A stretch of DNA of 64,000 bases from Clostridia bacterium (GTDB lineage Bacteria > Bacillota > Clostridia > UMGS1883): NCBI GenBank assembly GCA_017440585.1, contig JAFSGW010000017.1, forward strand, positions 17,401 through 81,400, read 5' to 3'. Positions within the stretch are counted from its first letter, which is position 1. Every line of letters starts with the position of its first letter. Made by a program: the position numbers and the translations under genes. Below, one piece after another: positions 7,048 to 62,402 of the stretch. The notes beneath the pieces are model-generated. The model was not told the DNA's origin and did no database searches. It was given only the letters and a program-made list of their open reading frames with translations.

Positions 7048-7061
7048 AGAGGGAGATAGTA

Positions 7062-8411
7062 ATGGGAAGATTGTTTGGTACTGATGGTGTTCGCGGTGTT
7101 GCGAATGAGCTTCTTACAAGCGAGCTTGCTTCAAAAATAGGAAAGGCAGGAGCGTGGGTGCTGTCAGGCGGCAGTGAACACAAGGTTAAGATTCTTATTG
7201 GCAGAGACACCAGAATTTCCGGACAGATGCTTGAGGCTGCATTAACGGCAGGCATTTGCTCTGTTGGTGCAGATGTTTACATACTTGGTGTTGCTCCTAC
7301 ACCTGCAGTGGCTTTCCTTACAAAAAAGTATGGCTTCGATGCAGGCGTGGTGGTGAGTGCATCCCACAACAGCTTTGAATTTAACGGCATTAAGTTTTTT
7401 GACAAAACGGGCTATAAGCTTCCCGATGAAACAGAAAACGAAATTGAAGCATATATTTTAGGCGAAAAGGATGGCATTCCCACACCTTCGGGCGAAAAGG
7501 TCGGCTGTGTGTATGATTTTTCGCATAAGCTTGACGACTATGTTGAAAAGGCTGTAAGCACAGCACCCTGCAATTTTGAAGGTAAGTTCTTTGTGCTTGA
7601 CTGTGCAAACGGTGCCTCGGTAGGCACTGCGAAGAAAGCCTTTGAAGCCCTTGGTGCACGTGTTGAGGTATTATCCTGTGAGCCTGACGGAGTTAACATC
7701 AACGACAACTGTGGCTCCACACATATGGAAAACCTTGCAGAAAAGGTAAAGGAGCTTAAGGCAGATGCAGGCTTTGCCTTTGACGGTGATGCTGACAGAA
7801 TGCTTGCTGTTGACGAAGAAGGTAACATTGTTGACGGTGACTGCATAATGGCAATCTGTGCCAACAACATGAAGAAAAAGGGCACACTTAAAAACAACAC
7901 CCTTGTGGCGACAGTTATGAGTAACCTTGGCTTATTCATAATGGGCGAAAAATACGGAATAGATGTTTTAAAAACCAAAGTTGGTGACAGATATGTGCTT
8001 GAAGAAATGCTCAGGGGCGGTCATTCAATCGGTGGTGAGCAGTCAGGTCACGTTATTTTCCTTGACCATAACACAACGGGTGACGGTCTGGTAAGTGCTA
8101 TTGCCCTTGCATCTGTTATGTGTGAAGAGGGTAAGTCTCTCTCTGAGCTTACAAAAATTATCGACATTTATCCTCAGGTGCTTAAAAATGCACGTGTTGC
8201 AAAGAGCGGTGACAATTCCTACAGCGAGGACGAGGTGATTATGGCTTCCATTGCTGCATTGGAGGAGAAGTTCTCCGGTGAAGGAAGAGTGCTTATACGC
8301 CCCTCGGGAACAGAGCCTCTTGTAAGGGTAATGATTGAAGGCAAGAACCAGGAAGAAATTACACGTGATGCCGAAGAGTTGGCAAAGCTTATTGAAGAGA
8401 GGCTGTCCTGA
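7062..8411 (+). CDS. glmM: Phosphoglucosamine mutase
   Basis: MGRLFGTDGVRGVAN, active-site SASHN, phosphohexomutase domains; 449 aa. Confidence 0.9.
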   Translation: MGRLFGTDGVRGVANELLTSELASKIGKAGAWVLSGGSEHKVKILIGRDTRISGQMLEAALTAGICSVGADVYILGVAPTPAVAFLTKKYGFDAGVVVSASHNSFEFNGIKFFDKTGYKLPDETENEIEAYILGEKDGIPTPSGEKVGCVYDFSHKLDDYVEKAVSTAPCNFEGKFFVLDCANGASVGTAKKAFEALGARVEVLSCEPDGVNINDNCGSTHMENLAEKVKELKADAGFAFDGDADRMLAVDEEGNIVDGDCIMAICANNMKKKGTLKNNTLVATVMSNLGLFIMGEKYGIDVLKTKVGDRYVLEEMLRGGHSIGGEQSGHVIFLDHNTTGDGLVSAIALASVMCEEGKSLSELTKIIDIYPQVLKNARVAKSGDNSYSEDEVIMASIAALEEKFSGEGRVLIRPSGTEPLVRVMIEGKNQEEITRDAEELAKLIEERLS

Positions 8412-8575
8412 TGGAACCCAAGGATTACATAATAGTTAAAATTGAAGGCGATTATGCCACACTTAAAGATGTGGAAACGGGCGGTGAGCTTTTTATAGCC
8501 ATGGCACTGTTGCCACCGGGCTGTGACATAGGAACAAAGCTTCATTATGAGTTGTTTGAATATTCGGTTATGTAA
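8411..8575 (+). CDS. Small hypothetical protein (DUF3006-like), translationally coupled to glmM
   Basis: 54-aa ORF starting at the TGATG stop/start overlap; sequence YIIVKIEGDYATLKDVETGGELFIAMALLPPGCDIGTKL resembles DUF3006 proteins. Confidence 0.4.
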   Translation: MEPKDYIIVKIEGDYATLKDVETGGELFIAMALLPPGCDIGTKLHYELFEYSVM

Positions 8576-8605
8576 AGGGTTAAAATATTGTTGGAGGTGA
8601 TTGTA

Positions 8606-8725
8606 GTGAACCAGAAGAACAATCAGAACAACAATAACAATAACCAGCAGAACCAGAATAACCAGAACAACAAGCAGCAGAAGGAAAACAACAAGCAGCA
8701 GAAGCAGAATAACAAGAGTCTTTAA
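8606..8725 (+). CDS. Asn/Gln-rich micro-ORF (about 39 aa), hypothetical
   Basis: GGAGGTG RBS 5 nt upstream of GTG; encodes VNQKNNQNNNNNNQQNQNNQNNKQQKENNKQQKQNNKSL; ends just before a strong hairpin terminator. Confidence 0.3.
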   Translation: MNQKNNQNNNNNNQQNQNNQNNKQQKENNKQQKQNNKSL

Positions 8726-8730
8726 ATAAG

Positions 8731-8760
8731 AAAAGCCCTCGGGTATCCCGAGGGCTTTTC
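8731..8760. terminator. Bidirectional rho-independent terminator
   Basis: AAAAGCCCTCGGG / CCCGAGGGCTTTT stem with tetraloop, between the convergent micro-ORF and TetR gene. Confidence 0.8.
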
Positions 8761-9333
8761 TTATGCAAGGAATATTTCACGTTTTCTTAAGGATGCACTT
8801 ATGCTTGGAAGAAGGGCGAGGATAAACGCCGCAATTTCCTCAGGGGATTTGTCGAAGCCACACTTTACCCACTGTTCAAGCATTCCCAATACGCCCATGA
8901 ACATAAAGCGGAAGATATAGTCCTTATCCTCTTCGGAAACATTGTCGTGATAGTCGAGCTGGGCAAGTCGCTTTACAGCTACCTCAGAAAAGCGAACACG
9001 GAAGGAGTTATTGAAGTCGGGTCGCATAAGTATTTTAAAAAGCTCGCCGTTTGATTTCATGTAATGAAGAAACTCTGTAAGCCCTTCAACACGATTGCCT
9101 TTTATGCTTACCTTGGCAAGGCAGGTGTTGATTTTTTCAACGCTGTCGTTTTCGATTTCATCGCAAAGAGCAAACTGGTCCACATAGTGCAGATAAAAGG
9201 TGGAGCGGTTAACATCGGCGTTTTCGCAGATTTCCTTAATAGTAATCTTTGGAAGGGGCTTTTCCTTTAAAAGCTCAAGAAGACTTTCCTTGAGAAGTGT
9301 TTTGGTCATGGTAACCCGACGGCTTTCTTTCAT
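8761..9333 (-). CDS. TetR/AcrR family transcriptional regulator
   Basis: N-terminal HTH LKESLLELLKEKPLPKITIKEICENADVNRSTFYLHY; RBS AGGAGA 8 nt upstream of ATG at 9333. Confidence 0.85.
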   Translation of the reverse strand: MKESRRVTMTKTLLKESLLELLKEKPLPKITIKEICENADVNRSTFYLHYVDQFALCDEIENDSVEKINTCLAKVSIKGNRVEGLTEFLHYMKSNGELFKILMRPDFNNSFRVRFSEVAVKRLAQLDYHDNVSEEDKDYIFRFMFMGVLGMLEQWVKCGFDKSPEEIAAFILALLPSISASLRKREIFLA

Positions 9334-9501: not shown

Positions 9502-10326
9502 ATGAGCTATAGAATTGTTATGGACAGTGCAGGAGAAGTGAATGAAAGGCTTTCTGGCAAGGTTGTAAGCGTGCCTTTGACAGTAAGCATAAACGGCAAG
9601 GATTATATTGCCGACGAGAATATGGACATAGACACCTTCCGCAAGGAGGTAAGAGAGTCGAAGGAGCCACCAAGAAGCTCCTGTCCTTCACCTGATGCCT
9701 TCTGTAATGCTATCGGTGACTGCGACAGAGTGTATATAATTACTATCACAGCGGCACTTTCCGGCTCCTATAACAGTGCAAGACTGGGTCTTCAGATGCA
9801 TCTTGGTGAAAACCCGGGAAAAAAGGGCTATGTTTTCAACTCTCTCAATGCTTCCGGCGGTGAAGCACTTGTGGCGGAAAAAATTATTGAGCTTGAGGAA
9901 AAGGGTCTTGAGTTTGAAGAAATTGTAAAAATCACAGAGGAATATATTCCCACAATTACAACAAACGTTGTGCTCGAGGATTTGAGCGTGCTTTACAAAA
10001 ACGGCAGACTTTCAAAGGTTGCATACGTTGCGACAAGCATTATTGACCTTGTGGCAGTCCTTGGTCTCCGTGAAGGTGAGCTTGTAAAAATTGCTCAGGC
10101 AAGGGGCGTTAAGAGGGCTATAGCAAAGCTCACGGAAACAGCCATTGCCGATATTAAGGAAAGAGGCATTAAAAAGATTACCATTACACACTCTGCGGCA
10201 CCTGAAAGGGCAGAGGCTTTAAAGGCGGCACTTGAAAAAGAAGTAGAGGCAGATATAGTAATTGTGCCTACAGGCGGTCTCATAAGCATGTATGCAGGAG
10301 AAAAGGGTCTTGTAATAAGTTATTAA
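9502..10326 (+). CDS. DegV family fatty-acid-binding protein (FakB-like)
   Basis: MSYRIVMDSAGEV..., YIITITAALSGSYNSARLG, 274 aa, typical DegV/EDD fold family. Confidence 0.8.
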   Translation: MSYRIVMDSAGEVNERLSGKVVSVPLTVSINGKDYIADENMDIDTFRKEVRESKEPPRSSCPSPDAFCNAIGDCDRVYIITITAALSGSYNSARLGLQMHLGENPGKKGYVFNSLNASGGEALVAEKIIELEEKGLEFEEIVKITEEYIPTITTNVVLEDLSVLYKNGRLSKVAYVATSIIDLVAVLGLREGELVKIAQARGVKRAIAKLTETAIADIKERGIKKITITHSAAPERAEALKAALEKEVEADIVIVPTGGLISMYAGEKGLVISY

Positions 10327-10331
10327 TATCG

Positions 10332-10368
10332 AAAGCGACATCTTACTGAAAAGATGTCGCTTTTATTT
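10332..10368 (+). terminator. Rho-independent terminator after degV
   Basis: AAGCGACATCTT / AAGATGTCGCTT stem followed by TTTTATTTG. Confidence 0.8.
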
Positions 10369-10369
10369 G

Positions 10370-10398
10370 TTTACACAAAGAGAAATTCCTTCTATAAT
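10370..10398 (+). promoter_or_regulatory. Sigma-A type promoter (TTTACA-17-TATAAT) for the CAZyme island
   Basis: Near-consensus hexamers with 17-nt spacer about 25 nt upstream of ATG 10424. Confidence 0.5.
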
Positions 10399-10423
10399 AG
10401 TATTAAAGAATGGGGGAGTTTTT

Positions 10424-13400
10424 ATGAAAAAGTTTATATCGATTGTTCTGGCGGGAATAATGTGTACAGGAGCTATACCTGCAATAGCAATGGAGGCTGA
10501 TAATGTGACGGAAAATATTATTTATGTATCCCAAACAGGCTTGGATACAAACGAAGGCAGCTTTGAAAAACCGGTGCAGTCACTTAATGTTGCCCGTGAC
10601 ATGGCAAGAGAAATGGAAGGCGAGGTGGAGATTGTTCTTCGTGGCGGCGAATATGTTCTCGAAGAAACTCTCACACTTGATAAAAGAGACAGCAACGTAA
10701 AGTGGAAAAGCTATGAGGGCGAGATCGCCATTGTTACAAGTGCCCGTGATATAACAGACTGGACAATTCATGATGAAGAGAAAAACATTTATAAAGCAGA
10801 GCTTGAGGAAGGCTTTATGACACGTCAGGTGTATTTTAACGGCGAAAAGGCGAAGAGAAGCAGAAGCATTTCCTACAAGGGTGGCTACAGCAACCTTGAC
10901 CGCACCTGCGAATTGGGCTTAAGGTCGCGTAACAGCAGAGAATTTTATTTTTACCGTAATGAGGTAGATAACTGGAACAATTTTGAGGATGTTGAAATAC
11001 ATCTTCTTTCCGCATGGGTTGACAATGTTTTCAGACTTAAAAAGTATGATGGCGAAAAGAACTTTTCGGAAACCACTGTTGATAACGGAGGAAGTGAGGG
11101 TGTAGTTTCTGCTGCTGCGGTAAAAATTCAGGATATTGAAGCAGAAAGAATTTTTAACCGTGCTCACCCCGACCTTACGGGTACAACACGCGGTTATGCA
11201 TCCAGAAGCTATTATTACTTTGAAAACGCCTACGAGTTTATTGATGAGGACCTGGAGTGGTATATTGATAAGCATACAGATACCATTTATTTCAAGGCTC
11301 CTTCGGGCGTTGATATGAACAAGGCAAGAATTACTGTGCCTACATTGGAAACCCTTATCAATATTGAAGGCGACAAGGAAAACAAAGCCGAAAATATTAC
11401 CTTTGAAAACATTACATTTGAATGCACAACATGGACACTCCCCGGTGAGGAAGGTCTTGTTGGGGCTCAGGCGTGCCAGTACACATTAACTACAACATTG
11501 GACAATAAAACAACAGTGTATCATATTCCTGCGGGCTTTTATGCCACATATGCGGATAACCTCCTTGTGAAAGGCTGTACCTTCCGCAAAATGGGTGCGA
11601 TGGGGCTTGACTATTATGAAGGTGTGACAAACAGCAATATTTTTGAAAACGAGGTTTATGATGTTGCGGCAACGGGTATTTCAATTGCCAAGTTCGTGCA
11701 GGACGAAAAAACGGAGTATCACACTGCTTATAACCCCTCAGATAAAAGAGAAATCACAAAAAACATTAATGTTATAAATAATAAGGTGCATCATATAGGC
11801 ACAGAATACGAGGGGGCTGTAGGTATTGCGGCAGGCTATCCCGAGCATATTATAATTGCACATAACGACATTCATAATGTGCCTTATTCTGGTATTTCCG
11901 TAGGCTTTGGCTGGTCTGATGCAGATAATGCCATGAAGCACAATATGATTTTTGCAAACAAGCTTGTTTCTTTGGGTGAGGTGCTTTGTGACTTTGGCGG
12001 TATTTACACTCTTTCAAAACAGCCCGGCAGTGTTTGTGCACGTAACTTTATGGATAATATAAAGAGAAAGGCATGGTTTGACTATGCCTATGCGGCAATG
12101 TATTTTGACGAGCAGACAGAAGGATATGTAATTGAAGACAACCTTTTGGTGAACATTGGCTCCGATGCATGGGGCGGTGGAATTAATTTCAATGGCTGTA
12201 AGAGCAAAAATACCCTCAGGACAAATTATGTAAATAAACCGATTGATACAAACGAAACAACACTTGCAGTATATAATGAGGCAGGTGTGCAATCTGTTGA
12301 AAGTGATGTGCTTGTAAAGGAAGCAGAGGAATACCTTGATAAAATAATAAACCCCGAGGAGCCCTATGACGAAGCAGATTATATGGTGCACAGAGAAATT
12401 ATGCCCATAAAGGCTACTGCAACAAGGGCAGATAGCGGAAGTGATGCATCCTATGCAATTGATAGAAACGGAAACACATCCTATAAGCTTTCCGGGCAGA
12501 CAGCAGAGAGTGCAAAAAATGAATATCTCTTAATTGAGCTTGACGGTAAGAGTGTTGTTGACAGCATTGTGATTGATAAAGAATATCATGCAGGCGGTAT
12601 TAATGAATATGACTACTGGGCAGACTGGTGTATGGCGGTAGGCTGTGAGCTTCAGGGCTCTGTGGATGGTACAACGTGGAAAACAATAGGTGTTATGAAT
12701 ACCTGGCCCGACGGTGTGACAGAGCCTGAAAGTGAGGTGTTTAACCTTGCAGAGCCTATGGCGTATAAGTACATAAGATACATCAGAACAACCGTTAAAA
12801 AGAGCGGTGATTACGGCTACTGGCTCTGGAGCTCTTCTGACGGAGGAAACCGTTTGAACATAAAAGAAATTAGCTTCTTTGGTTCAGTACCCTCCACAAG
12901 GCTTGAACCGATTAACGTAACTGCAACGGGCTGTGACGAAGACAGCGACCCTTCCTATGCAACAGACGGAAACCATAAAACCGTGTATACCCTTTCAAAT
13001 CAGACAGCTGACAGCATGAAGGATGAGTACCTTCTTCTTGAGCTTGACGGAAAGAGAACAGTTGACAAGATAATTATCCGCAGACAGTTTAATGCGGCAA
13101 ACGGCACGGTGAATAACTACTGGTATGACTGGGGTCTTGCGGTAGGCTGTGAGCTTCAGGGTTCCTTTGACGGTGAACAATGGGAGACAATTGCAGTTAT
13201 GAACACCTGGCCTGACGGAAAGGGAGAAACAACCAAGGAGGTATTTGAGCTTCAAAAGCCTGCTAAGTATAAATATGTGAGATACATAAGAACAAAGTAC
13301 AAAACAGGCAGTGATTACCTTGTATGGCTCTGGAAAAATACCGATGGAGGAAACAGACTGAATGTTAAGGAAATTGAGCTTTATTCAGCCCAGAGACCGG

Positions 13401-51079: not shown

Positions 51080-52348
51080 ATGAAGGTTTTAGTAGTTGGC
51101 GGCGGCGGAAGAGAGCATACAATTGTATGGAAGCTTTCCCAGAGCCCTAAGGTTGATAAGATTTATTGTGCACCCGGCAATGCAGGTATTGCCTCCCTGG
51201 CAGAATGTGTTGCTATTAAGGCAACCGATGTTGATGCTATGGTGGACTTTGCCGTAAAGGAAAAGGTTGACATGGTTATGGTTGCACCTGATGACCCGTT
51301 GGTGCTCGGCATGGTTGATGCTATGGAGGCTAAGGGTATCCGTGCATTCGGTCCCAGAGCAAATGCGGCAATTATTGAAGGCAGTAAGGTTTTTTCTAAG
51401 GACCTTATGAAGAAGTACAATATTCCTACTGCAAAGTATGAAGTGTTTGACAATGCAGATGCAGCGATAAAATATCTTCAGACTGCACCTATCCCTACGG
51501 TTATCAAGGCAGAAGGCTTGGCACTTGGTAAGGGCGTTATTATTGCAATGACTCTTGAAGAGGCAGAAAAAGCTGTTCACGAAATGATGGAGGATAAGGT
51601 TTTCGGCAATGCGGGAAGCCGTATTGTTATTGAAGAATTTTTGTCCGGTCCCGAGGTAAGTGTTCTTGCATTTACTGACGGCAAGACTGTTAAGCCCATG
51701 GTTTCAGCTCAGGACCATAAGAGAGCATATGATAACGATGAAGGTCTTAACACAGGCGGCATGGGAACTTTCTCACCCTCAAGAATTTACGACGAAAAGA
51801 TGGCAGAGGAATGCATGCAGAACATTTTTATTCCTACAGTAAATGCCATGAATGCAGAGGGCAGAACCTTCAAGGGCGTTTTATACTTTGGTCTTATGGC
51901 AACAAAGGATGGCGTTAAGGTTATTGAATACAACTGCCGTTTCGGTGACCCCGAGACTCAGGTTGTGCTCCCGAGATTAGAGAGCGACCTTTACGAAATT
52001 TTTGATGCAATTATTGATGAAAGACTTGCCGAGATTGACATAAAATGGCGTGACGGCGGTGCTGTATGCGTTGTTTGTGCAAGCGGCGGTTATCCCGTTA
52101 AGTATGAATCGGGCTTTGAAATTACAGGCATTGAGGATGCGGAAGCTTTAGGCGACATTACCGTATTCCATGCAGGCACAAAGGCTCAAGACGGTAAAAT
52201 TGTTACCGCAGGTGGCAGAGTGCTTGGTGTTACCGCTGTTGCTGAAAGCCTTGATGCTGCAATTAAGAAGGCATACGAGGGTGTAGAAAAGGTGCACTTT
52301 GACAAGATGCACTACAGAAAAGATATAGGTATTAAAAAATACAACTGA
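51080..52348 (+). CDS. purD: Phosphoribosylamine--glycine ligase
   Basis: MKVLVVGGGGREH, ATP-grasp. Confidence 0.9.
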   Translation: MKVLVVGGGGREHTIVWKLSQSPKVDKIYCAPGNAGIASLAECVAIKATDVDAMVDFAVKEKVDMVMVAPDDPLVLGMVDAMEAKGIRAFGPRANAAIIEGSKVFSKDLMKKYNIPTAKYEVFDNADAAIKYLQTAPIPTVIKAEGLALGKGVIIAMTLEEAEKAVHEMMEDKVFGNAGSRIVIEEFLSGPEVSVLAFTDGKTVKPMVSAQDHKRAYDNDEGLNTGGMGTFSPSRIYDEKMAEECMQNIFIPTVNAMNAEGRTFKGVLYFGLMATKDGVKVIEYNCRFGDPETQVVLPRLESDLYEIFDAIIDERLAEIDIKWRDGGAVCVVCASGGYPVKYESGFEITGIEDAEALGDITVFHAGTKAQDGKIVTAGGRVLGVTAVAESLDAAIKKAYEGVEKVHFDKMHYRKDIGIKKYN

Positions 52349-54045: not shown

Positions 54046-56336
54046 ATAAGATAACTTTGTATCCCGATAAAAAATTGCATCCCCTTGGTGATTTGTACGG
54101 TATATTTTTTGAAGATATAAACCACGCCGCTGATGGCGGATTATATGCAGAAATGGTACAAAACCGTTCTTTTGAGTTTGACACAATTGACAATAGAAGG
54201 TATAACCCTCTTACTGCCTGGGAAACCCTTGGCTGTGAAGTGAGGGTTGAAAATGCATATCCTCTTAATCGCAACAATACCCATTACCTTGTAATTGAAG
54301 TAAATGACTATGAATGCGGTGTTGAAAACCACGGCTTTAATGACGGTATGCATATCAAGAAGGGCGAGAGGTACAAATTTTCCTTTTACGCACGACGTAA
54401 TACGGGTTTTTCAAAAGATGTGAACATCCGCCTTGTTTCGAAAGAAACGGGGCCCGTGGCTTGTGAAACCATTAAAATTACAAGCTGCGACTGGGAAAAG
54501 TACCAGTGTGTGCTTACTGCAGAGGAAAGCGGAGTTTGTTATCTTGTAATTACAACCTCGGGAAAGAGCCTTGTTTACCTTGATGATGTATCACTTTTCC
54601 CTGAAAATACATATAAGAACCGTGAAAACGGTTTAAGGCGTGATATAGCAACACTTCTTGCGGAATTAAAGCCTAAATTTATGCGTTTCCCCGGGGGATG
54701 CCTGGTGCACGACGGCAATCTGGACCCTCATGCAAGAAATTCGCTGTATCGCTGGAAAAATACAATCGGTGATGTGAGTGAAAGACCAACAAGGAGAAGT
54801 AACTGGGGCTATAATCAGACCTTAGGGCTCGGGTATTACGAATATTTCCTTTTCTGCGAGGATATTGGTGCAAAGCCTTTGCCCGTTCTTCCTGCGGCAT
54901 ATAACCCTCATCACCACGATGCTGTGCCCTTTGATGAATTAAAGCCCTGGATAGATGATGCACTTGATTTGATTGAGTTTGCAAACGGCACAACCGAAAC
55001 TAAATGGGGCAAAATCCGTGCAGAGCTTGGTCACAGCGAGCCCTTTAACCTTGAATACCTTGCAATAGGTAATGAAGAGGTGGGGGATGACTTCTTTGAA
55101 AGGTACCCTTATTTCCATAAGGCTATAAAGGAAAAATACCCCGAAATTAAGCTTATAGGCTCATCGGGACCCTTCCCCTGCGGTGGCGAGTTTGAAAAGG
55201 GATGGAAATGTGCAAGGGAAAACAAGAGTGAAATGGTAGATGAGCATTACTACGTTTCACCTGAATGGATGATAGCAAACAACAAGAGGTATTTTGAATA
55301 TAAAAAGGATGACCCGAAGGTATTTTTAGGTGAATATGCTTCCTGGGGCAACACCTTTTACAACGCCCTCTGCGAGGCAAGCTATATGACCGCTATGGAA
55401 ACAAGCGGAAATGTGGCACTTGCATGCTATGCACCTCTTCTTTGTAATGCTGACTATGTGAACTGGAAGCCTGACCTTATCTGGTTTAACGGTGAAAGTG
55501 CATATGGCACACCTAACTACTATGTACAGAAGCTCTTTATGAATAACCAGGGAGACAGTGCAATAGAGCATTCTGTAGTTTCGGAGAAAAACTCTGTTGC
55601 TCTCAGTGACGAAAACATCACCGGAGAGATATTTTTCAAAACAGTGGACACCGAAGCACAGTTTTATGACATTAAAATTAACGGAAAAACTGTAAATGAA
55701 AAAGGCTTTACACTTAAACGGGAAGGTTCGCAGATGAAAAAGCTCGAAGAAGTAGGAATTTTAGGGGATTTTGAGTTAGAGTGTAAAGCGAAAGAGCTTG
55801 ACGGAAAAAGAGGCTTTATCATCTGTTTTGGAGTTAAAGGTTATGGCAATTTATACCATTGGGAGTTCGGCGGCTGGCAAAATCAGGACAGTGCGGTATG
55901 CTCAACGGTAAATTACAGAGAGTCTGTTCTTGCCCATGAACTCAGAAGCGTGGAGAAAGACCGTGAATACACACTTAAAGTGGTTGTCCGCAAAAATGTG
56001 ATTTTATGCTATATTGATAACGAGCTTGTTCACGAGGCAGTTGTGAAGCCTGCGGTAGTTGAACCCGTTTATACAGCATCTTCCGTAAACGAAGACGGCA
56101 GTGTGGTTTTAAAGGTTGTTAATTTGCAGGATACTGAATATAATGCAGAAATCGAAACAAATATGAACATACAACGCGTGGCAGGTGAGGTTATAACAGG
56201 GGATTTAAATGCCGAAAACAGCTTTGAAAACCCCAAAAACATTGTGCCTTGTAATATAGCTTTTGAGTATGAAGGCTCGGTTATAAAGCATAGTTTCCCT
56301 TCCCATAGCGTAACGGTAATAGTAATAAATGGATAA
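54042..56336 (+). CDS. GH51 alpha-L-arabinofuranosidase with N-terminal CBM4/9-like domain (intracellular, no signal peptide)
   Basis: LYGIFFEDINHAADGGLYAEMVQNRSFE, RFPGGCLVHDG, IGNEEVGD (acid/base Glu region), C-terminal beta-sandwich. Confidence 0.8.
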   Translation: MNKITLYPDKKLHPLGDLYGIFFEDINHAADGGLYAEMVQNRSFEFDTIDNRRYNPLTAWETLGCEVRVENAYPLNRNNTHYLVIEVNDYECGVENHGFNDGMHIKKGERYKFSFYARRNTGFSKDVNIRLVSKETGPVACETIKITSCDWEKYQCVLTAEESGVCYLVITTSGKSLVYLDDVSLFPENTYKNRENGLRRDIATLLAELKPKFMRFPGGCLVHDGNLDPHARNSLYRWKNTIGDVSERPTRRSNWGYNQTLGLGYYEYFLFCEDIGAKPLPVLPAAYNPHHHDAVPFDELKPWIDDALDLIEFANGTTETKWGKIRAELGHSEPFNLEYLAIGNEEVGDDFFERYPYFHKAIKEKYPEIKLIGSSGPFPCGGEFEKGWKCARENKSEMVDEHYYVSPEWMIANNKRYFEYKKDDPKVFLGEYASWGNTFYNALCEASYMTAMETSGNVALACYAPLLCNADYVNWKPDLIWFNGESAYGTPNYYVQKLFMNNQGDSAIEHSVVSEKNSVALSDENITGEIFFKTVDTEAQFYDIKINGKTVNEKGFTLKREGSQMKKLEEVGILGDFELECKAKELDGKRGFIICFGVKGYGNLYHWEFGGWQNQDSAVCSTVNYRESVLAHELRSVEKDREYTLKVVVRKNVILCYIDNELVHEAVVKPAVVEPVYTASSVNEDGSVVLKVVNLQDTEYNAEIETNMNIQRVAGEVITGDLNAENSFENPKNIVPCNIAFEYEGSVIKHSFPSHSVTVIVING

Positions 56337-57876
56337 ATTCAAAAGTTTTGCTGAAAAAGTGCAGGACGTAACAGCAAATGTGCTTTTAACAAGACCTTTG
56401 GCAGTGTTTTCTGTTCTTGCATTCATATTTGTAATTATGAGGCTCTATTTTTCCATAGAGCCTCTGCTTTTGCTGGCATTTTTCATAGGCTGTCTGTTTG
56501 TTTTCCTTTACGTTAAAGGTAAAACAGATGCTTTCATAACTGCATTTTTATGCTTGTCCATGCTTTTGGGGATTTGTGCCGCAAATAATAAGCTTTTTAA
56601 GGTGGAAAGCCTATATAAAAGCCTTGACGATGAATATGTCCGCATTTCGGGAACGGTGTCATCTGTGCCTGATGAAGGAAAAAGCTTTAACACCTTCTTT
56701 GTTGAATGCGATGAAATCGAGTCGCACAAAGGCACGTTTAATAATGTGAAGGTTTATGTGAAGCTGAAGGACCGCTTTCCTTTGAGCTATGGCGACAGAA
56801 TCCTTTTTAATGCAAAGCTAACTGCTGCAGGGAGAAATGATACACCTTTTGAAAAGTATTATCTTGCAAAAGGGGCACTGTTTACAGCAAGTGATGTGAC
56901 GGTGCTTGGGAGGTCTCCGTCCGCGGGCTTTGACGGTATACTTGCAAGGGCAAGGAACTATTTTATCACAGTTTCGGATAAATGGCTTGAAAACCGTGAT
57001 GCAGTAGCTCTCTTTAAGGCACTTACTGCAGGCGACAGAAGCGATTTTTCAAAGGAGCTGACAAGAAACCTCAGCCTTTCAGGGCTTAGCCACATTGCCT
57101 GTGTATCGGGGTTACATGTGTCAATCATAGGTATGGCGGTTTTCTCCCTCTTTAAAAAGCGGGGAAGGGTTTTATCGGCAATACTGGCACTTACGGCAGT
57201 TTATTTCTTTGCTTTCCTTACGGGTGCAACGCCCTCTTCATTACGTGCGGCAATAATGTTTACAAGCTTTATAATCGCCCGTATTGCATTAAGGGACAAC
57301 GACAGCTTTACATCCCTTTGCATTTCAGCTATGCTGCTTATTCTGATAAATCCTTATGTAATATTTGATACGGGGTTCATTCTGTCTTTTTTAAGTGTAC
57401 TTGGCATACAGATATTTTCATATTATTTCAAGCAACTAATGAGCTTTTTGCCCGATAAGCTTTCCGATTCCATATCTGTTACAATGGCAGCACAGCTCAT
57501 GACAGCACCGGTTGTGGTGAATATGTTCGGATATTTAACAACCTATTCGGTGTTTTCAAACATAATTATTTCCGTAATTTTCATATGGGTATTATATTTG
57601 TGCTTCGTTCTTGCTTTCGTTGCACCAATTCCCATAATAAACACAATTACGGCGTGGCTTTGCGAATGTGGGCTTATAATTATAGCGGCTGTGGCAAATT
57701 TCTTTGCGGAATTGCCCTTCAGCCACATTGGTGCAAGCAGTATGAACGTAGTGCAGATTATAGCATATTATGTTATAGTGGTTATGTTTGTTTTCAGAGA
57801 GAAGCTTTCTAAATGGTTTACGGGCACAGTTTTGCTTTTGTGCATGCTGTTGTCGGTTGTAAGTGCTTTTATTTAA
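56329..57876 (+). CDS. ComEC/Rec2-related membrane protein lacking the C-terminal MBL domain
   Basis: DUF4131-like N-terminus and Competence domain (LSGLSHIACVSGLHVSII); 515 aa; start overlaps the GH51 stop. Confidence 0.65.
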   Translation: MDKFKSFAEKVQDVTANVLLTRPLAVFSVLAFIFVIMRLYFSIEPLLLLAFFIGCLFVFLYVKGKTDAFITAFLCLSMLLGICAANNKLFKVESLYKSLDDEYVRISGTVSSVPDEGKSFNTFFVECDEIESHKGTFNNVKVYVKLKDRFPLSYGDRILFNAKLTAAGRNDTPFEKYYLAKGALFTASDVTVLGRSPSAGFDGILARARNYFITVSDKWLENRDAVALFKALTAGDRSDFSKELTRNLSLSGLSHIACVSGLHVSIIGMAVFSLFKKRGRVLSAILALTAVYFFAFLTGATPSSLRAAIMFTSFIIARIALRDNDSFTSLCISAMLLILINPYVIFDTGFILSFLSVLGIQIFSYYFKQLMSFLPDKLSDSISVTMAAQLMTAPVVVNMFGYLTTYSVFSNIIISVIFIWVLYLCFVLAFVAPIPIINTITAWLCECGLIIIAAVANFFAELPFSHIGASSMNVVQIIAYYVIVVMFVFREKLSKWFTGTVLLLCMLLSVVSAFI

Positions 57877-57972
57877 GGACACGGAGACGTGTCCTTAAAT
57901 TTTTACTTGACAAGCCTACAAATGTAGTCTATAATGAGGTTGACTACAATTGTAGGTGAAAGGAGAATTAGT

Positions 57973-58332
57973 ATGCCTAAAACAATAACAGAATCCGAAT
58001 ATGAGATTATGAAGGTCTTGTGGGAAAACAGCGGTGCCATGGGGCTTGGAGAAATAATGAGCACACTGGGCGATAAATGGGCACGTAATACCGTTGGTAC
58101 ACTTCTTGTACGTCTTGCTGAAAAAGGCGTTATAGGCGTTAAAAAGCAGGGTAAAACCAATTTGTATTGTGCAATCTTAAATGAGAAGGATTACAGCATA
58201 AGTGAAACAAAGAGCTTTTTGTCGAAGCTTTATAAGGGCTCCGTTGGAAACCTGGTTGCATCTTTGTTTGAAAGCAAAGAGCTTTCCGAAGCTGAAATAG
58301 AAAGCCTCAGAAAAATTATTAACGGTGACTGA
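57973..58332 (+). CDS. BlaI/MecI/CopY family transcriptional repressor
   Basis: TESEYEIMKVLWENSGAMGLGEIMSTL winged-helix; AAAGGAG RBS. Confidence 0.85.
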   Translation: MPKTITESEYEIMKVLWENSGAMGLGEIMSTLGDKWARNTVGTLLVRLAEKGVIGVKKQGKTNLYCAILNEKDYSISETKSFLSKLYKGSVGNLVASLFESKELSEAEIESLRKIINGD

Positions 58333-58334
58333 CT

Positions 58335-59135
58335 ATGAAAACATTGTTATTTTTAAACATTCAGGGAAGTGTGCTTGTAATATTGCTTCTTTTGCTGAAA
58401 AAAATAATTCACCGTTCTTTTTCGGGCAAGGCACAAAGAGCAATGTGGGCTTTTGCAGCGGTTATGTTTTTACTGCCCATATGGAAGCTGGTGCCTGCGG
58501 AGAAGGCTGTACCAATAATCATACCCTATTATGATGACAGCTTAATTTATGAAGCTGTGGCAGACATAAGCGAAAATGATGACAGAGATTTTAACACAGA
58601 GGAATTTTCTCCCATAAAGATATATGATATCGTGCCTTTAATATGGGGGTCGGGAGCAGCTTTGTTTATGCTTCTGAGCATCTCAAGCTATATGGTGTTT
58701 CTGTTTAAAAAGAGAAGAGCAAGCAATAGTGTTACCGATGAGGTTCTTGAAAATATACTGCCCGAAACAGATATAAAACGGAAAATAAGGCTCAGAGAGT
58801 GCACTGATAATGACTCGCCTATGCTGACGGGAGTGTTTTTCCCTGTTGTGTACATACCAAAGAATGAGCTTAACGAGGCGGAGAGAGGGTATATATACCG
58901 TCATGAGCTTATGCATTTTCTGCATAAGGATTTGCTGTTGAAATGGTTTGTATGCTTTATCAATGCCATACATTGGTTCAATCCTTTTATGTATATTGTT
59001 ATGAGAAATATTAATGAAGCCTGCGAAATTTACTGCGACGAAGAAGTTACAAAAGATATGGATATTGAGAGCAAACGAGGGTACATGAATACAATATTGA
59101 ATTTAGTAGGGAAGAAAGGAGAAAACTATGTTTAA
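58335..59135 (+). CDS. M56 (BlaR1-type) zinc metalloprotease domain protein without sensor domain
   Basis: 4 TM helices, HELMH zinc motif in RHELMHFLHKD; 266 aa; 2 nt after the BlaI stop. Confidence 0.75.
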   Translation: MKTLLFLNIQGSVLVILLLLLKKIIHRSFSGKAQRAMWAFAAVMFLLPIWKLVPAEKAVPIIIPYYDDSLIYEAVADISENDDRDFNTEEFSPIKIYDIVPLIWGSGAALFMLLSISSYMVFLFKKRRASNSVTDEVLENILPETDIKRKIRLRECTDNDSPMLTGVFFPVVYIPKNELNEAERGYIYRHELMHFLHKDLLLKWFVCFINAIHWFNPFMYIVMRNINEACEIYCDEEVTKDMDIESKRGYMNTILNLVGKKGENYV

Positions 59136-60402
59136 AAGCATTTACACAACACGTATGAGCGGAAGCAGCAGGGTTCTTGCGAAGAGATTTGAAAAAATTT
59201 CAGGTCAGCCGGGCAGGTTTAAAAGCCTGAAGGCTGTAATATGCAGTGTTCTGGTTATATCTGTTTTCGCCCTTGGAACTATCGTTATGGCTGATATTGA
59301 CAAAGAGGAGGAATATACGCTTCTTATCACAAATAATCGCTTGGCTGTACTTCTTGAAAATACACCCTTTGTTGAAAACGGAGAAGTATATGTTCCCCTT
59401 CGTGAGCTTTTTACAAAGCTTGGGTTTATGAATCATATTGATGCAAAAATGGAATGGAATGACGGAACAGTACTGATTTATCTTGTTGAAGAAAACCTTA
59501 ACGAGGACAGAGGCAGTGCACATACAAGCTATATGTATAAAATTGAAATTGGCAAAAGCGAGCTTTTGATGAACCCTGATGAATTAGTCAGTATGGAAGG
59601 AAGCTATGAATTTACAGAGCCGATGAATTTGCCTCCCGTACTGAAAGGAAATGTAACATACATACCGTTTGCATATGCACAAAGAATGGTTGAGAGAGCC
59701 GACAACGGAATACAGTCACCTCCTGACAGATACGATCTGGAATTCGTATATTCGGGAGAGGTGCTTGAGATTGGTTATCCTTTTGACATGGAATATCCCG
59801 TGACAAGTATGTTTGGCGAAAGAATACATCCTATAACGGGAGAAAAGAGATTGCATAGCGGAACGGATTTTGGTGTAGATGTGGGAACAAGCGTCAGAGC
59901 CGGTATTGACGGAATGGTTACGGACGAAGGTTTTGATGAAAACAACGGATATTATGTTGTTGTGAAAAATGATATCGGAGTGGAGATTTTATATGCTCAC
60001 CTGAGCACTATTGCAAGGCATGGTGCATACGAGGTTAAAAAGGGCGATATTATAGGGGCGAGCGGAAACAGTGGTAAATCTACAGGACCGCATTTGCATA
60101 TGGAGGTTAAAATTAACGGAAAGTATGTTAACCCTGAGCTGTATTTTGAGGATGTTGTTTATGTAGCAGGTTTTCTGAATGAGGTTTCGGATCAATTACC
60201 GAGAGTATTACATATATGCGGCTATCCGGATGCGGAATATGAAATTAAAGGATGCAGTATTGAAAATGACAATGCACATATCGAAATTGAACTTTTAAAT
60301 TACGAAAACGATGTCATTACTATTCAGTATTACAAAAATGCCGGTGGACAGTGGTGGCTTGGGGCAGGCTTTAATAAGCAGGGGTTAATATTCATAACAT
60401 AA
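59128..60402 (+). CDS. Membrane-anchored M23 family peptidase with Cu-amine-oxidase-N1-like stalk domain
   Basis: N-terminal tail plus TM; ENGEVYVPLRELFTKLG; M23 motifs HSGTDFG, LYAHLS, GPHLHMEV; start overlaps the M56 stop. Confidence 0.75.
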   Translation: MFKSIYTTRMSGSSRVLAKRFEKISGQPGRFKSLKAVICSVLVISVFALGTIVMADIDKEEEYTLLITNNRLAVLLENTPFVENGEVYVPLRELFTKLGFMNHIDAKMEWNDGTVLIYLVEENLNEDRGSAHTSYMYKIEIGKSELLMNPDELVSMEGSYEFTEPMNLPPVLKGNVTYIPFAYAQRMVERADNGIQSPPDRYDLEFVYSGEVLEIGYPFDMEYPVTSMFGERIHPITGEKRLHSGTDFGVDVGTSVRAGIDGMVTDEGFDENNGYYVVVKNDIGVEILYAHLSTIARHGAYEVKKGDIIGASGNSGKSTGPHLHMEVKINGKYVNPELYFEDVVYVAGFLNEVSDQLPRVLHICGYPDAEYEIKGCSIENDNAHIEIELLNYENDVITIQYYKNAGGQWWLGAGFNKQGLIFIT

Positions 60403-60436
60403 AAAAGATGCAGGAAGAATTTCCTGCATCTTTTTG
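60403..60436. terminator. Bidirectional terminator
   Basis: AGATGCAGGAA / TTCCTGCATCT stem flanked by A/T runs between convergent genes. Confidence 0.8.
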
Positions 60437-60437
60437 G

Positions 60438-62402
60438 TTAGTTTGAGAATTTAATCTGATTCCAGAGTGACTGGATGTAATTGTTTGTTTCCTCGGGAAG
60501 TGCAATGTAAAGCTCTGTTTTTTCGTTTAAGAATTCATCAGAGGGGTAACGGCGTTCGTCGTTCTTCACCTCGTCATCAAGAAGCTCAAACACTTCCTTA
60601 TGGGGAGTGGAGTAGCCGATGTATTCACAGTTTGCAAGAGCAATTTCTGTTTCGCAAAGGAAGTTGATATACATTTCAGCTGCTTCCTTATTCTTCGCAC
60701 CGGTGGGAATACAAGCCGCATCCACAAACCTATTGGTGCCCTCCTTGGGAATGTAATAGTCAAGGTCGGGATTGGACTCAAGCATGGAAACCGCATCACC
60801 AACGTAATAGGGTGCTACAGCGGCGTTACCGCCTTCCATTTTGTCAAACACTTCGTCCATTACATATGCCTGAACAAGGTCTGATGAATACTGCTCGTAG
60901 AGCTTTTCAAAGGTTTTGTCAATCTCATTTTTATCTGTTGTGTTCAGAGAATAACCCATGTAGCACTGTGCTGCCGCAAAGGCATCACGGGGGTTGTTGA
61001 ACATAAGAATGTTGCCCTTTTGTGCTTCATCCCAGAGAGCACCCCAGCTGTCGGGAGCCTTGTCATACATGGTTTTGTTGTAGATAATGCAAACCATACC
61101 CCAGGTGTAGGGAACTGTGTACTCATTGGTTGGGTCATAGGAAAGGTTTTTGAAGGTATCCATTATCTTTGTGTCAAAGTTGGGAATGTTTTCATAATCC
61201 AGCTTCTGAATCATGCCTTCGTTTATGAACCTTGAAATCATATAGTCAGAAGGGATAACAATGTCATAATTAGCACCACCGCTCTTTAATTTAGCGTAGA
61301 GCTCTTCATTGTTGGTATAGGTTGTGTAATTAACCTTAATGCCCGTTAAAGCCTCAAACTGCTCATTAACGTTTATCATATCCGCTTCATCTATACAGAG
61401 GTATTCGCCCCAGTTTGCAACGTTAATTGTCAGTTTATCGTTTGCAAAACGCGTATAGTCATAATTTGAAAGCATGCGCATGTCCATTTCAAGCTTGGGA
61501 CCCATATTGAGCACAATGCCAACTGTAACACCAACAGAAGAAACGAGGAGGACAAGAGCTGTTATAAGGGCAATTGTCTTCTTTCTTGAACGAAGACCTT
61601 CTTTTTCCTTCTGTTCAACCCTGAGCTTTCTGTTGTCAATAAAGTTCTTTACAACGAGAACTATAAGTATTGTAACAAAAATGAGGGTGGAAAGTGCATT
61701 GATACTGGGGTCCATGTTACGTCTTGTCATGGAGTTGATTACAATGGGAAGTGTGAGTACGCCTTCACCTGAGTTGAAGTAGCTGACAACAAAGTCGTCA
61801 AGAGAGTAGGTGAGAGCCATTATAAAGCCTGAAAATACGCCGGGCAATATTTCGGGTATAACAACTTTAAAGAATGCCTGACGGGAATTACAGCCTAAAT
61901 CATATGCCGCTTCGAGCAAATTGGGGTTCATCTGCCTTAATTTGGGCAGAACCTGAAAGATTACATAGGGAACACAGAATGCAATATGTGCAAGAACAAG
62001 TGTGATGTAACCAAATTCAAGCGGGGTATAGCGCATGAACACCTTGAAAAGAAGCATTAAGGATACACCCATGATAATTTCGGGGTTTACAATGGGGATA
62101 TAGGTAATGTTCATTACAAGGGAACGTGTTTTTTTGTTAAGGTTATTGATGCCTATTGCAGCTGTTGTACCCAAAGCTGTGGAAATAACAGAAGAAACAA
62201 TTGCCACAAGAAGGGTATTGAACAGAGCGAGCATTGTGGTGCGATCAGAAAACAGTGCAACGTACCATCTTAAGGAGAAACCGCCCCATGCAACACGTGA
62301 ATCCTTCGCATTGAAGGAGAAAATTACAAGTGTAAGGATGGGCAGGTATAGAAAGAGCACCAGAAGCACCATATAAAGTTTTGAGGTCAAGGACTTTTTC
62401 AT
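60438..62402 (-). CDS. Spermidine/putrescine ABC transporter permease PotC fused in-frame to periplasmic binding protein PotD
   Basis: N-terminal 6-TM permease with EAA-like loop, then a TM resembling a PotD signal peptide (KKTIALITALVLLVSSVGVTVG), then PotD-like SBP domain. Confidence 0.75.
   Translation of the reverse strand: MKKSLTSKLYMVLLVLFLYLPILTLVIFSFNAKDSRVAWGGFSLRWYVALFSDRTTMLALFNTLLVAIVSSVISTALGTTAAIGINNLNKKTRSLVMNITYIPIVNPEIIMGVSLMLLFKVFMRYTPLEFGYITLVLAHIAFCVPYVIFQVLPKLRQMNPNLLEAAYDLGCNSRQAFFKVVIPEILPGVFSGFIMALTYSLDDFVVSYFNSGEGVLTLPIVINSMTRRNMDPSINALSTLIFVTILIVLVVKNFIDNRKLRVEQKEKEGLRSRKKTIALITALVLLVSSVGVTVGIVLNMGPKLEMDMRMLSNYDYTRFANDKLTINVANWGEYLCIDEADMINVNEQFEALTGIKVNYTTYTNNEELYAKLKSGGANYDIVIPSDYMISRFINEGMIQKLDYENIPNFDTKIMDTFKNLSYDPTNEYTVPYTWGMVCIIYNKTMYDKAPDSWGALWDEAQKGNILMFNNPRDAFAAAQCYMGYSLNTTDKNEIDKTFEKLYEQYSSDLVQAYVMDEVFDKMEGGNAAVAPYYVGDAVSMLESNPDLDYYIPKEGTNRFVDAACIPTGAKNKEAAEMYINFLCETEIALANCEYIGYSTPHKEVFELLDDEVKNDERRYPSDEFLNEKTELYIALPEETNNYIQSLWNQIKFSN

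Follow-up and report, generated by a model that had tools for sequence, protein, structure and literature searches.

The window examined here is the whole of a 64,000-nucleotide (nt) stretch of contig JAFSGW010000017.1 (positions 17,401 to 81,400 of the forward strand; assembly GCA_017440585.1, Clostridia bacterium). It carries a module of three co-directional genes encoding a BlaI/MecI-family repressor (the BlaI homologue), an M56 protease core (the M56 protein) and a membrane protein with an M23 peptidase domain (the M23 protein), and the relation of this module to the BlaR1/BlaI system of Staphylococcus aureus is the subject of this report. An earlier description made from the DNA letters alone (hereafter the sequence-only reading) had noticed three tightly coupled genes with 2-nt and overlapping junctions. 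The open reading frame (ORF) coordinates agreed with it: a gap of 2 nt separates blaI from the M56 gene, and the M56 and M23 genes overlap by 8 nt (ATGTTTAA). AGGAG ribosome-binding sites precede the M23 gene as well as blaI, in the latter case 7 nt 5' of the start, and the promoter and terminators mark the three genes as one transcription unit (Table 1). The same gene arrangement was found in 10 independent metagenome contigs, which excludes an assembly artefact.

Table 1. Positions of the predicted genes, regulatory elements and protein domains of the module (window coordinates; aa, amino acids; TM, transmembrane; AF2, AlphaFold2).
Feature	Position	Strand	Description
Intrinsic terminator of the upstream ComEC-like gene	57871..57900	+	13-bp stem, then T run
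Sigma-70-type promoter	57907..57935	+	TTGACA, 17-nt spacer, TATAAT; 12/12 matches
Operator box 1 (predicted)	57916..57927		CTACAAATGTAG; TACAnnTGTA core, within promoter spacer
Operator box 2 (predicted)	57944..57955		CTACAATTGTAG; perfect palindrome, directly 3' of -10 hexamer
BlaI/MecI-family repressor gene	57973..58332	+	119 aa
M56 protease core gene	58335..59135	+	266 aa
M23 protein gene (third gene)	59128..60402	+	424 aa
Cytoplasmic tail, residues 1-25	59128..59202	+	Homologous to BlaR1 F275-I299
Single TM helix, residues 36-55	59233..59292	+	Homologous to BlaR1 TM4 (alpha10)
Cu_amine_oxidN1-like extracytoplasmic beta domain, residues 65-192	59320..59703	+	PF07833; AF2 strands 65-192
M23 (LytM-type) domain, residues 204-336	59737..60135	+	Pfam Peptidase_M23
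C-terminal helix plus 5-stranded sheet domain, residues 342-424	60151..60399	+	AF2; no family match
Bidirectional intrinsic terminator	60402..60435		15-bp stem, both strands; shared with convergent ABC-transporter gene

The terminator of the upstream gene would shield the module from upstream transcription, and the -35 and -10 hexamers of the module's own promoter were unchanged across seven orthologous loci (alignment A7). The search for BlaI operators upstream of position 57973, which the sequence-only reading had proposed, yielded two palindromic boxes. Both are invariant in the seven orthologous loci, and no further match to that 12-mer turned up in the 64-kb window, even when one mismatch was tolerated. 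A TACAnnTGTA core is typical of BlaI/MecI/CopY operators. The strict pattern CTACnnnnGTAG occurred 29 times in 78 blaI-upstream intervals versus once in the remaining 1.24 Mb of the fetched loci; it suits the nearer relatives only, and variant dyads were found in more distant loci. Four TACAnnTGTA matches were counted in the window, somewhat more than the shuffled expectation of 0.87; the two outside the module lie at 51118-51127 and 62325-62334, the latter inside the 5' part of an ABC-transporter gene.

The first protein matched the Pfam family Penicillinase_R (PF03965; E = 1.5e-30, profile positions 1-114 of 115) as well as MecI and BlaI structures at 3e-18 and 3e-12, respectively. A BlaI-family winged-helix repressor and palindromic operators over its own promoter are both present at this locus. 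The protein aligned without gaps to MecI (1SD6/1OKR) and BlaI (1SD4) through the cleavage region, in which the predicted scissile bond S97↓L98 (nt 58261-58266) falls on N101↓F102 of MecI/BlaI. A CopY-type copper repressor was considered and rejected: TIGR02698 scored 75.9 bits against a cut-off of 121.95, and the C-terminal CxCxxxxCxC motif is missing, the only cysteine being located in the protein body and the C-terminal region (...LRKIINGD) being cysteine-free. The NCBIfam matches of the three proteins were all sub-threshold (BlaI/MecI/CopY, BlaR1 and MepM/ShyA-type models). DNA affinity purification sequencing in Clostridium thermocellum showed that BlaI-family regulons can be confined to their own operon, one such operon being described as BlaI, BlaR1 and two hypothetical proteins (PMC8457756). 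By analogy, these own-operon regulons appear to provide a precedent for the present module.

The second protein matched Pfam Peptidase_M56 (PF05569) at E = 1.7e-46 over profile positions 2-271 of 296. It carries the HELMH motif already seen in the sequence-only reading (residues 190-194, nt 58902-58916), followed by E231xxxD235 (nt 59025-59039). Alignments A1 and A4 show no change in the five residues of this gluzincin motif on the cytoplasmic side (H190, E191, H194, E231 and D235), which correspond to H201, E202, H205, E242 and D246 of BlaR1, respectively. Searches with Pfam and NCBIfam found a penicillin-binding (class D beta-lactamase-like) sensor domain in neither the M56 nor the M23 protein, which bears out the earlier statement that the M56 protein lacks one; beta-lactam sensing was rejected on this ground. 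The NCBIfam model blaR1_generic scored 98 bits against a cut-off of 400 and covered profile positions 8-273 of 585 only.

The topology of the M56 protein differs from the earlier description, which had assigned it four TM helices. The alignment and the fold give three full ones (TM1-TM3), a beta-sheet, a re-entrant hydrophobic helix pair bearing HExxH...ExxxD and the helix alpha8, after which the chain ends. The supposed fourth helix is the re-entrant hydrophobic segment after HELMH, and the real one is part of the M23 protein. The AF2 model of the core (predicted local distance difference test score (pLDDT) 80; predicted template-modelling score (pTM) 0.71) also ends after the alpha8-equivalent helix, and it matched only five PDB entries, all of them BlaR1, with template-modelling scores (TM-scores) of 0.59-0.64. 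The BlaR1 fold comprises four full TM helices plus a re-entrant loop (PMC9834060). The M56 chain has no autocleavage loop, alpha9, Arg294 or TM4, so neither this full set of helices nor the autocleavage loop with its alpha9 arginine is found in it as in the single chain of BlaR1. Homologues of the M56 protein down to 35% identity are all 254-283 aa long, and the homologues of the M23 protein (340-440 aa) are found on the contigs that also encode them; in more distant relatives, M56 is combined with Cu_amine_oxidN1 or M23 in one chain of 550-720 aa.

Alignment A1 was built from the window M56 protein joined to the first 62 residues of the M23 protein, the proteins of three orthologous loci joined likewise, and fused proteins. 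The concatenates aligned gap-free and were colinear with the fused M56-Cu_amine_oxidN1 and M56-M23 proteins. Besides the zinc-site residues, A1 keeps one invariant arginine, R286 of the concatenate, which is R20 of the M23 protein. The A1 profile matched S. aureus BlaR1 (8EXS/8EXP) over residues 4-329 at E = 2e-31; this profile was needed to reach BlaR1, as the single-sequence PDB search with the concatenated proteins returned M23 structures only. In the profile alignment, M56 residues Y250, I254 and V258 correspond to Y261, I265 and V269 of BlaR1, and the first ~55 residues of the M23 protein then align residue by residue with BlaR1 275-329. Here, M1 to M10 pair with F275 to F284, the substrate-like segment Y6-T7-T8-R9↓M10-S11 with L280-S-H-S283↓F284, K19 and R20 with the alpha9 residues R293 and R294, and the TM helix with TM4 (alpha10).

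In BlaR1, autocleavage occurs in cis at S283↓F284 inside the loop 271-289, which fills and blocks the active site whether intact or cleaved; the dimer is domain-swapped between alpha8 and alpha9, with alpha9 and alpha10 (TM4) packing on the partner protomer, and in the active site, Asp246 is salt-bridged to Arg294' of alpha9 (PMC9834060). When the alignment is read against these cryo-EM positions, the gene boundary coincides with the start of the autocleavage loop, and the gene break thus sits at the alpha8/alpha9 domain-swap hinge. The autocleavage loop and the alpha9 arginine are found only when the second and third proteins are taken together. These data indicate that, as far as the alignments go, the M56 protein is the front half of a BlaR1-type receptor and the M23 protein its missing back half. 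The sequence-only reading had proposed that the M23 protein replaces the missing sensor, and this part of it stands; its view of the M56 protein as an autonomous, four-helix sensor-less BlaR1 does not, because TM4 and Arg294 are carried by the M23 protein. Overall, we read the module as an autoregulated BlaI/BlaR1-type proteolytic signalling operon with a two-polypeptide receptor, at a probability of about 0.7; it would work as a BlaI/M56 proteolytic circuit in which BlaI is the presumed cleavage target.

We then examined the distribution of this split. A one-genome-per-species scan with the M56-core alignment gave 535 relatives, of which the best 80 loci were fetched, and 82 non-redundant loci were translated in all frames and searched with hidden Markov models (HMMs) for BlaI, core, tail and ectodomain pieces. 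The gene order in 82/82 loci was BlaI, M56 core and then ORFs beginning with the tail, the exception being one locus without a tail ORF that runs into the contig edge. One tail ORF was present in 39 loci, two in 34, three in 6 and four in 2. The M56 cores are of 270-290 aa; from stop to stop they measured 250-320 aa, and they ended after YMNTILNLVxKK. A core and a tail shared one reading frame in none of the 82 loci, and the distance from the core stop to the first tail start was mostly -8 to +24 nt, in all three frames. Two loci hold further modules: in L045, a conventional pair of BlaI and a fused 634-aa M56 protein (6984-9274) lies directly upstream of the split module (9592-12978) in the same orientation, and L080 contains two split modules on opposite strands.

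The tail proteins begin with the motif M[LF][EK]N.YTT[KR]MS..K.L..RF.KI and a TM helix, after which unrelated ectodomains follow. Among 133 tail proteins, T7, T8 and R20 were kept in all (133/133), F21 in 132, M10 and L17 in 131, and M1 and S11 in 129. Their first 35 residues contain on average 9.2 Lys/Arg versus 1.7 Asp/Glu, which fits a cytoplasmic location of the tail. Within a locus, the tails (residues 1-30) are 78% identical and the ectodomains 11% identical, pointing to a docking cassette that stays constant while the outer domains vary. When 1.84 billion representative proteins were searched exhaustively with a 62-residue tail profile, 232 clusters passed E <= 1e-3, and 113 of them E <= 1e-10. 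Of the best 150 clusters, about 145 have the motif within residues 1-60, and the protein lengths span 60 to 708 aa. For two members taken from this list (P0206 and P0262), the genes immediately upstream encode a 266- or 276-aa M56 protein and, before it, BlaI, and the neighbourhoods are unrelated; a word-indexed homologue search with the 62-aa profile returned short fragments only. The carriers are uncultured gut and rumen Clostridia, mostly Oscillospiraceae where named, together with one cultured species, Ructibacterium gallinarum DSM 107454 (locus L015). The two-piece design thus recurs in at least 80 species of gut Clostridia.

For the third protein, the basic tail, TM helix, Cu_amine_oxidN1-like domain and M23 catalytic domain listed in the sequence-only reading were all recovered, but the C-terminal helix and beta-sheet domain had been overlooked. 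The latter is present in orthologues of 420-440 aa and missing from the closest relatives (342-355 aa, P0002-P0008). The PF07833 match (E = 2.5e-08, residues 74-184) scored 34.2 bits, above the gathering cut-off of 24.2, and the Peptidase_M23 match (E = 1.4e-23) scored 83.3 bits against 28.7. Measured by the known residue roles in M23 peptidases (Hx3D, a His about 30 residues before HxH, and HxH; PMC9662197), the window domain is intact in HSGTD (Hx3D), the middle His (YAHL) and HLH. Its AF2 model has a pLDDT of about 90, and Foldseek retrieved NMB0315, ShyA, LytM and EnvC, with target-based TM-scores of up to 0.86 for the isolated domains, so that the fold agrees with the M23 family. The window copy may be an active endopeptidase. 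Of the 20 M23 ectodomains of the family, 11 have lost the middle His equivalent to LytM His260 and 3 the first His of HxH, and all keep the zinc ligands; owing to these losses, peptidoglycan endopeptidase activity would not be a family-wide requirement. This pattern suggests that peptide binding rather than turnover is the property conserved in these ectodomains. In BlaR1, the sensor derives from an enzyme and binds its ligand but does not turn it over, and the family M23 ectodomains may resemble it in this respect.

The TM helix of the window protein ends in a signal-peptidase-like motif, V-M-A↓D. The family keeps this motif, with A/S/G at position -1 in 133/133 and V/A/I at -3 in 112/133 tail proteins. 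At the equivalent position of BlaR1 (G331↓Q332), SpsB cuts the receptor and sheds the sensor.

The ectodomains vary widely. In a Pfam scan covering 123 of the 133 tail proteins, the majority had no match at all; Cu_amine_oxidN1 was detected in 50/123, M23 in 19/123, DUF4829 in 6/123, LprI in 3/123, and LytR_cpsA_psr, Big_14 and DUF4825 in 1/123 each. In the HMM survey, an M23 tail protein was present in 20/82 loci. The synteny survey therefore did not uphold the BlaI-M56-M23 trio of the sequence-only reading as a conserved unit, since the M23 protein is confined to these loci and relatives hold extra tail genes in between; the conserved unit is a repressor, a protease core and detachable sensor halves. 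One or two more tail-first genes lie between the M56 and M23 genes in the orthologous loci, including one of 204 aa in the closest species (81% identity). In the window, the M56 gene passes at its 3' end into sequence that relatives have in front of the M23 gene, which adds GENYV to the M56 protein and creates the 8-nt overlap, and the tail-coding 5' ends are alike at the DNA level. Both features fit a loss of the middle cassette or cassettes from the window by deletion, which we infer. The presence of one core with two to four sensor halves in relatives implies either a multi-input receptor or a co-regulated set of surface proteins. In one orthologous metagenome-assembled genome (L008, 11893-13200), the M23 gene is in two pieces, one of 83 codons with tail and TM helix, whose annotation is a hypothetical protein of 75 aa (P0137), and one of 352 codons with the rest; this break is either a frameshift or a pseudogene.

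No universal output gene was found downstream or divergently upstream in the 82 loci. The only recurrent extra gene encodes a secreted protein with SLH repeats (17/82 loci). The gene for this SLH-like-repeat protein, which has ~330 aa and a conventional signal peptide, comes after the last tail gene, e.g. in L050 (3059-4045), and is absent from the window.

The orthologous loci keep the full neighbourhood of arabinofuranosidase gene, ComEC gene, module and convergent ABC (ATP-binding cassette) transporter. The upstream ComEC-like gene (56329-57876, + strand; 515 aa) has DUF4131 and Competence domains, a C-terminal metallo-beta-lactamase domain was not detected in it, and its first 8 nt overlap with the end of the arabinofuranosidase gene; its product measures 514 aa in the closest species (L086) and 611-628 aa in the other orthologous loci. 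The convergent gene (60438-62402, - strand) encodes a 654-aa fusion of an ABC permease (BPD_transp_1) and a periplasmic solute-binding domain (SBP_bac_1/8/11), and is followed by a second permease and an ATPase in an order that is syntenic in all close relatives. Two metagenome variants of the window locus have a truncated BlaI of 75 aa (L088, 1847-2074) or a truncated M56 protein of 155 aa (L089, 2541-3008), and the M23 protein encoded by both contigs is identical to that of the window; these truncations may be strain-level loss-of-function variants or assembly errors.

Based on these results, a mechanism can be proposed for the two-polypeptide receptor. The tail and TM helix of the third protein would dock non-covalently on the M56 core, as the swapped alpha9-alpha10 segment does in the BlaR1 dimer, and the assembled core and tail protein would form a BlaR1-like unit, probably a dimer. 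R20 of the tail would pair with D235 of the core, completing the active site, while the YTT(K/R)↓MS segment would sit in the cleft of the active site and autoinhibit it as a bound substrate or product. Some event at the ectodomain, presumably the binding or cleavage of peptidoglycan peptides in the case of the M23 domain, would shift the TM4-alpha9 module, displace this segment and free the cleft. BlaI would then be cut near S97↓L98 and the operon derepressed, the products being receptor parts only. The assembly of core and tail, the signal and the cleavage of BlaI are thus all predictions from sequence comparison. In its most general form, the core would be a socket for interchangeable plug-in sensor or effector subunits, whereby any exported protein bearing a tail-TM cassette of ~55 residues (autocleavage loop, alpha9 and TM4) could complete the active site and gate BlaI cleavage; we advance this tentatively, as a possibility with somewhat less than even odds. 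If true, one repressor circuit would integrate several cell-surface inputs, the membrane remnant left after a signal-peptidase cut at VxA↓A could be a regulatory subunit, and the family would amount to a natural experiment indicating that covalent continuity across the BlaR1 autocleavage loop is unneeded for signalling.

Several observations weigh against a receptor of this kind. The P1↓P1' residues of the predicted BlaI cleavage site are S↓L here, versus the nearly invariant N↓F of staphylococcal BlaI, in which Phe at P1' is almost invariant (PMC9834060). The conserved signal-peptidase-like site could mean that the ectodomain is released, leaving no tethered sensor. The window M23 domain keeps all its catalytic residues and could be a plain enzyme rather than a ligand sensor. 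Furthermore, the operon has no separate output gene, and its derepression would yield receptor parts alone.

Some of these points would find a place in an alternative that we regard as unlikely, in which the tail proteins are exported surface enzymes that serve as substrates or cargo: the M56 core would clip their tails at TT(K/R)↓MS, signal peptidase would free the ectodomains, and BlaI would compete with the tails for the active site, so that the circuit gauges the load of tail proteins (a homeostatic feedback) instead of an external ligand. Such a scheme accommodates the substrate-like P4-P1' segment kept at the position of the BlaR1 scissile bond, the near-universal VxA↓A site at the TM end, where SpsB cuts BlaR1 too, the status of the tail proteins as the only universally co-transcribed genes, and the resemblance of many ectodomains to cell-wall effectors (M23, LprI and LytR_cpsA_psr). 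However, R20, which is invariant (= Arg294), and the TM helix belong to the BlaR1 protease fold as structural elements and are more than a substrate; because the core has no equivalent of either, it probably needs the tail for activity. The loss of the middle catalytic His in 11 of the 20 M23 ectodomains also suits binding more than a purely enzymatic role. Moreover, clipping of the tails overlaps with the two-polypeptide receptor and does not exclude it.

It is rather improbable that the M56 protein is an autonomous sensor-less protease on which the M23 protein acts indirectly through released peptidoglycan fragments, without completing a receptor. The genes are indeed tightly coupled, the active site of the window M23 domain is intact and sensor-less BlaR proteins exist in mycobacteria and Pseudomonas, but these hold TM4 and Arg294 in the same chain, whereas here both stand at the start of the M23 protein; in addition, the M23 domain is dispensable (20/82 loci) while the tail is universal. 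Finally, fused M56-M23 and M56-Cu_amine_oxidN1 proteins in distant relatives and the 8-nt overlap at the junction might evoke a fused gene split by frameshift, sequencing error or pseudogene decay, which would also hide a sensor domain as the sequence-only reading had cautioned, but this was rejected as highly improbable, given the identical junction in 10 independent contigs, the conservation of the split down to 35% identity in 82 loci with variable spacing, all three frames and a start codon and ribosome-binding site for each gene, and the presence of second to fourth tail genes that could never fuse to the core.

The purpose of autocleavage and the transmembrane signalling of BlaR1 are still debated despite the 2023 cryo-EM structures, and a family with a natural break within the autocleavage loop, at the swap hinge, allows loop, alpha9 and TM4 to be tested directly as a separable regulatory subunit. 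Under the two-polypeptide reading, hundreds of gene pairs that gut and rumen Clostridia carry under the annotations "M56 family metallopeptidase" and "hypothetical/M23" would be the halves of one receptor, and the largely uncharacterised ectodomains of the tail proteins would be candidate sensors of the cell-surface state. The cultured carrier R. gallinarum DSM 107454 opens the way to experiments. Architectures combining M23 and M56 are rare and of unknown function according to a review (PMC9662197). In the literature searched, which formed an incomplete library, we found no description of a split BlaR1, a tail cassette or an M56 plus M23 system, and the two-piece BlaR1 design, in which the outer domains are interchangeable, seems to lack an earlier description.

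In common with BlaR1/BlaI and MecR1/MecI of S. aureus (8EXP-8EXT), the module has a winged-helix repressor of the BlaI family whose own promoter is overlapped by dyads of the TACAnnTGTA type. Its M56 gluzincin, as in BlaR1 and MecR1, bears HExxH...ExxxD on a re-entrant helix, and the parts that follow also recur: a segment of the autocleavage loop, the arginine of alpha9, a last TM helix and, outside the membrane, a domain of enzyme-fold origin. Both the module and BlaR1 also have a signal-peptidase-type site behind this last TM helix. In contrast to BlaR1, the receptor consists of two polypeptides, broken at the alpha8/alpha9 hinge; its ectodomain in the window is Cu_amine_oxidN1 plus M23 instead of a penicillin-binding (OXA-like) domain; up to four alternative second halves exist in the window's relatives; and the module has no separate resistance gene, in addition to the S↓L instead of N↓F bond in BlaI. 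The module would be BlaR1/BlaI-like in its working but departs from a single-chain BlaR1 in three defining features: TM4, the alpha9 arginine and the penicillin-binding sensor.

The sensor-less BlaR proteins Rv1845c of Mycobacterium tuberculosis, MAB_2414c of Mycobacterium abscessus and PvmS of Pseudomonas aeruginosa likewise pair an M56 protease that has no penicillin-binding domain with a BlaI-family repressor; in these, one chain contains both the HExxH motif, placed between TM helices three and four, and the residue equivalent to Arg294 (bioRxiv 10.64898/2026.08.03.742534). Unlike them, the module has its fourth TM helix and the arginine on a separate protein with a large ectodomain. The fused M56-Cu_amine_oxidN1 and M56-M23(-Big_14) proteins of Clostridia (P0029, P0038, P0052 and P0094) are colinear with the window pair and have the same domains and the loop motif LTTQM..KRRF; in contrast to this pair, they are single polypeptides with one ectodomain per protease. 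As for the M23/LytM endopeptidases MepM, ShyA, LytM and NMB0315, the window domain shares their fold and all zinc and catalytic residues, whereas about half of the family's M23 ectodomains are without the LytM His260 equivalent, and the window domain is anchored by a BlaR1-derived tail and TM helix instead of an ordinary signal peptide or a LysM/coiled-coil module.

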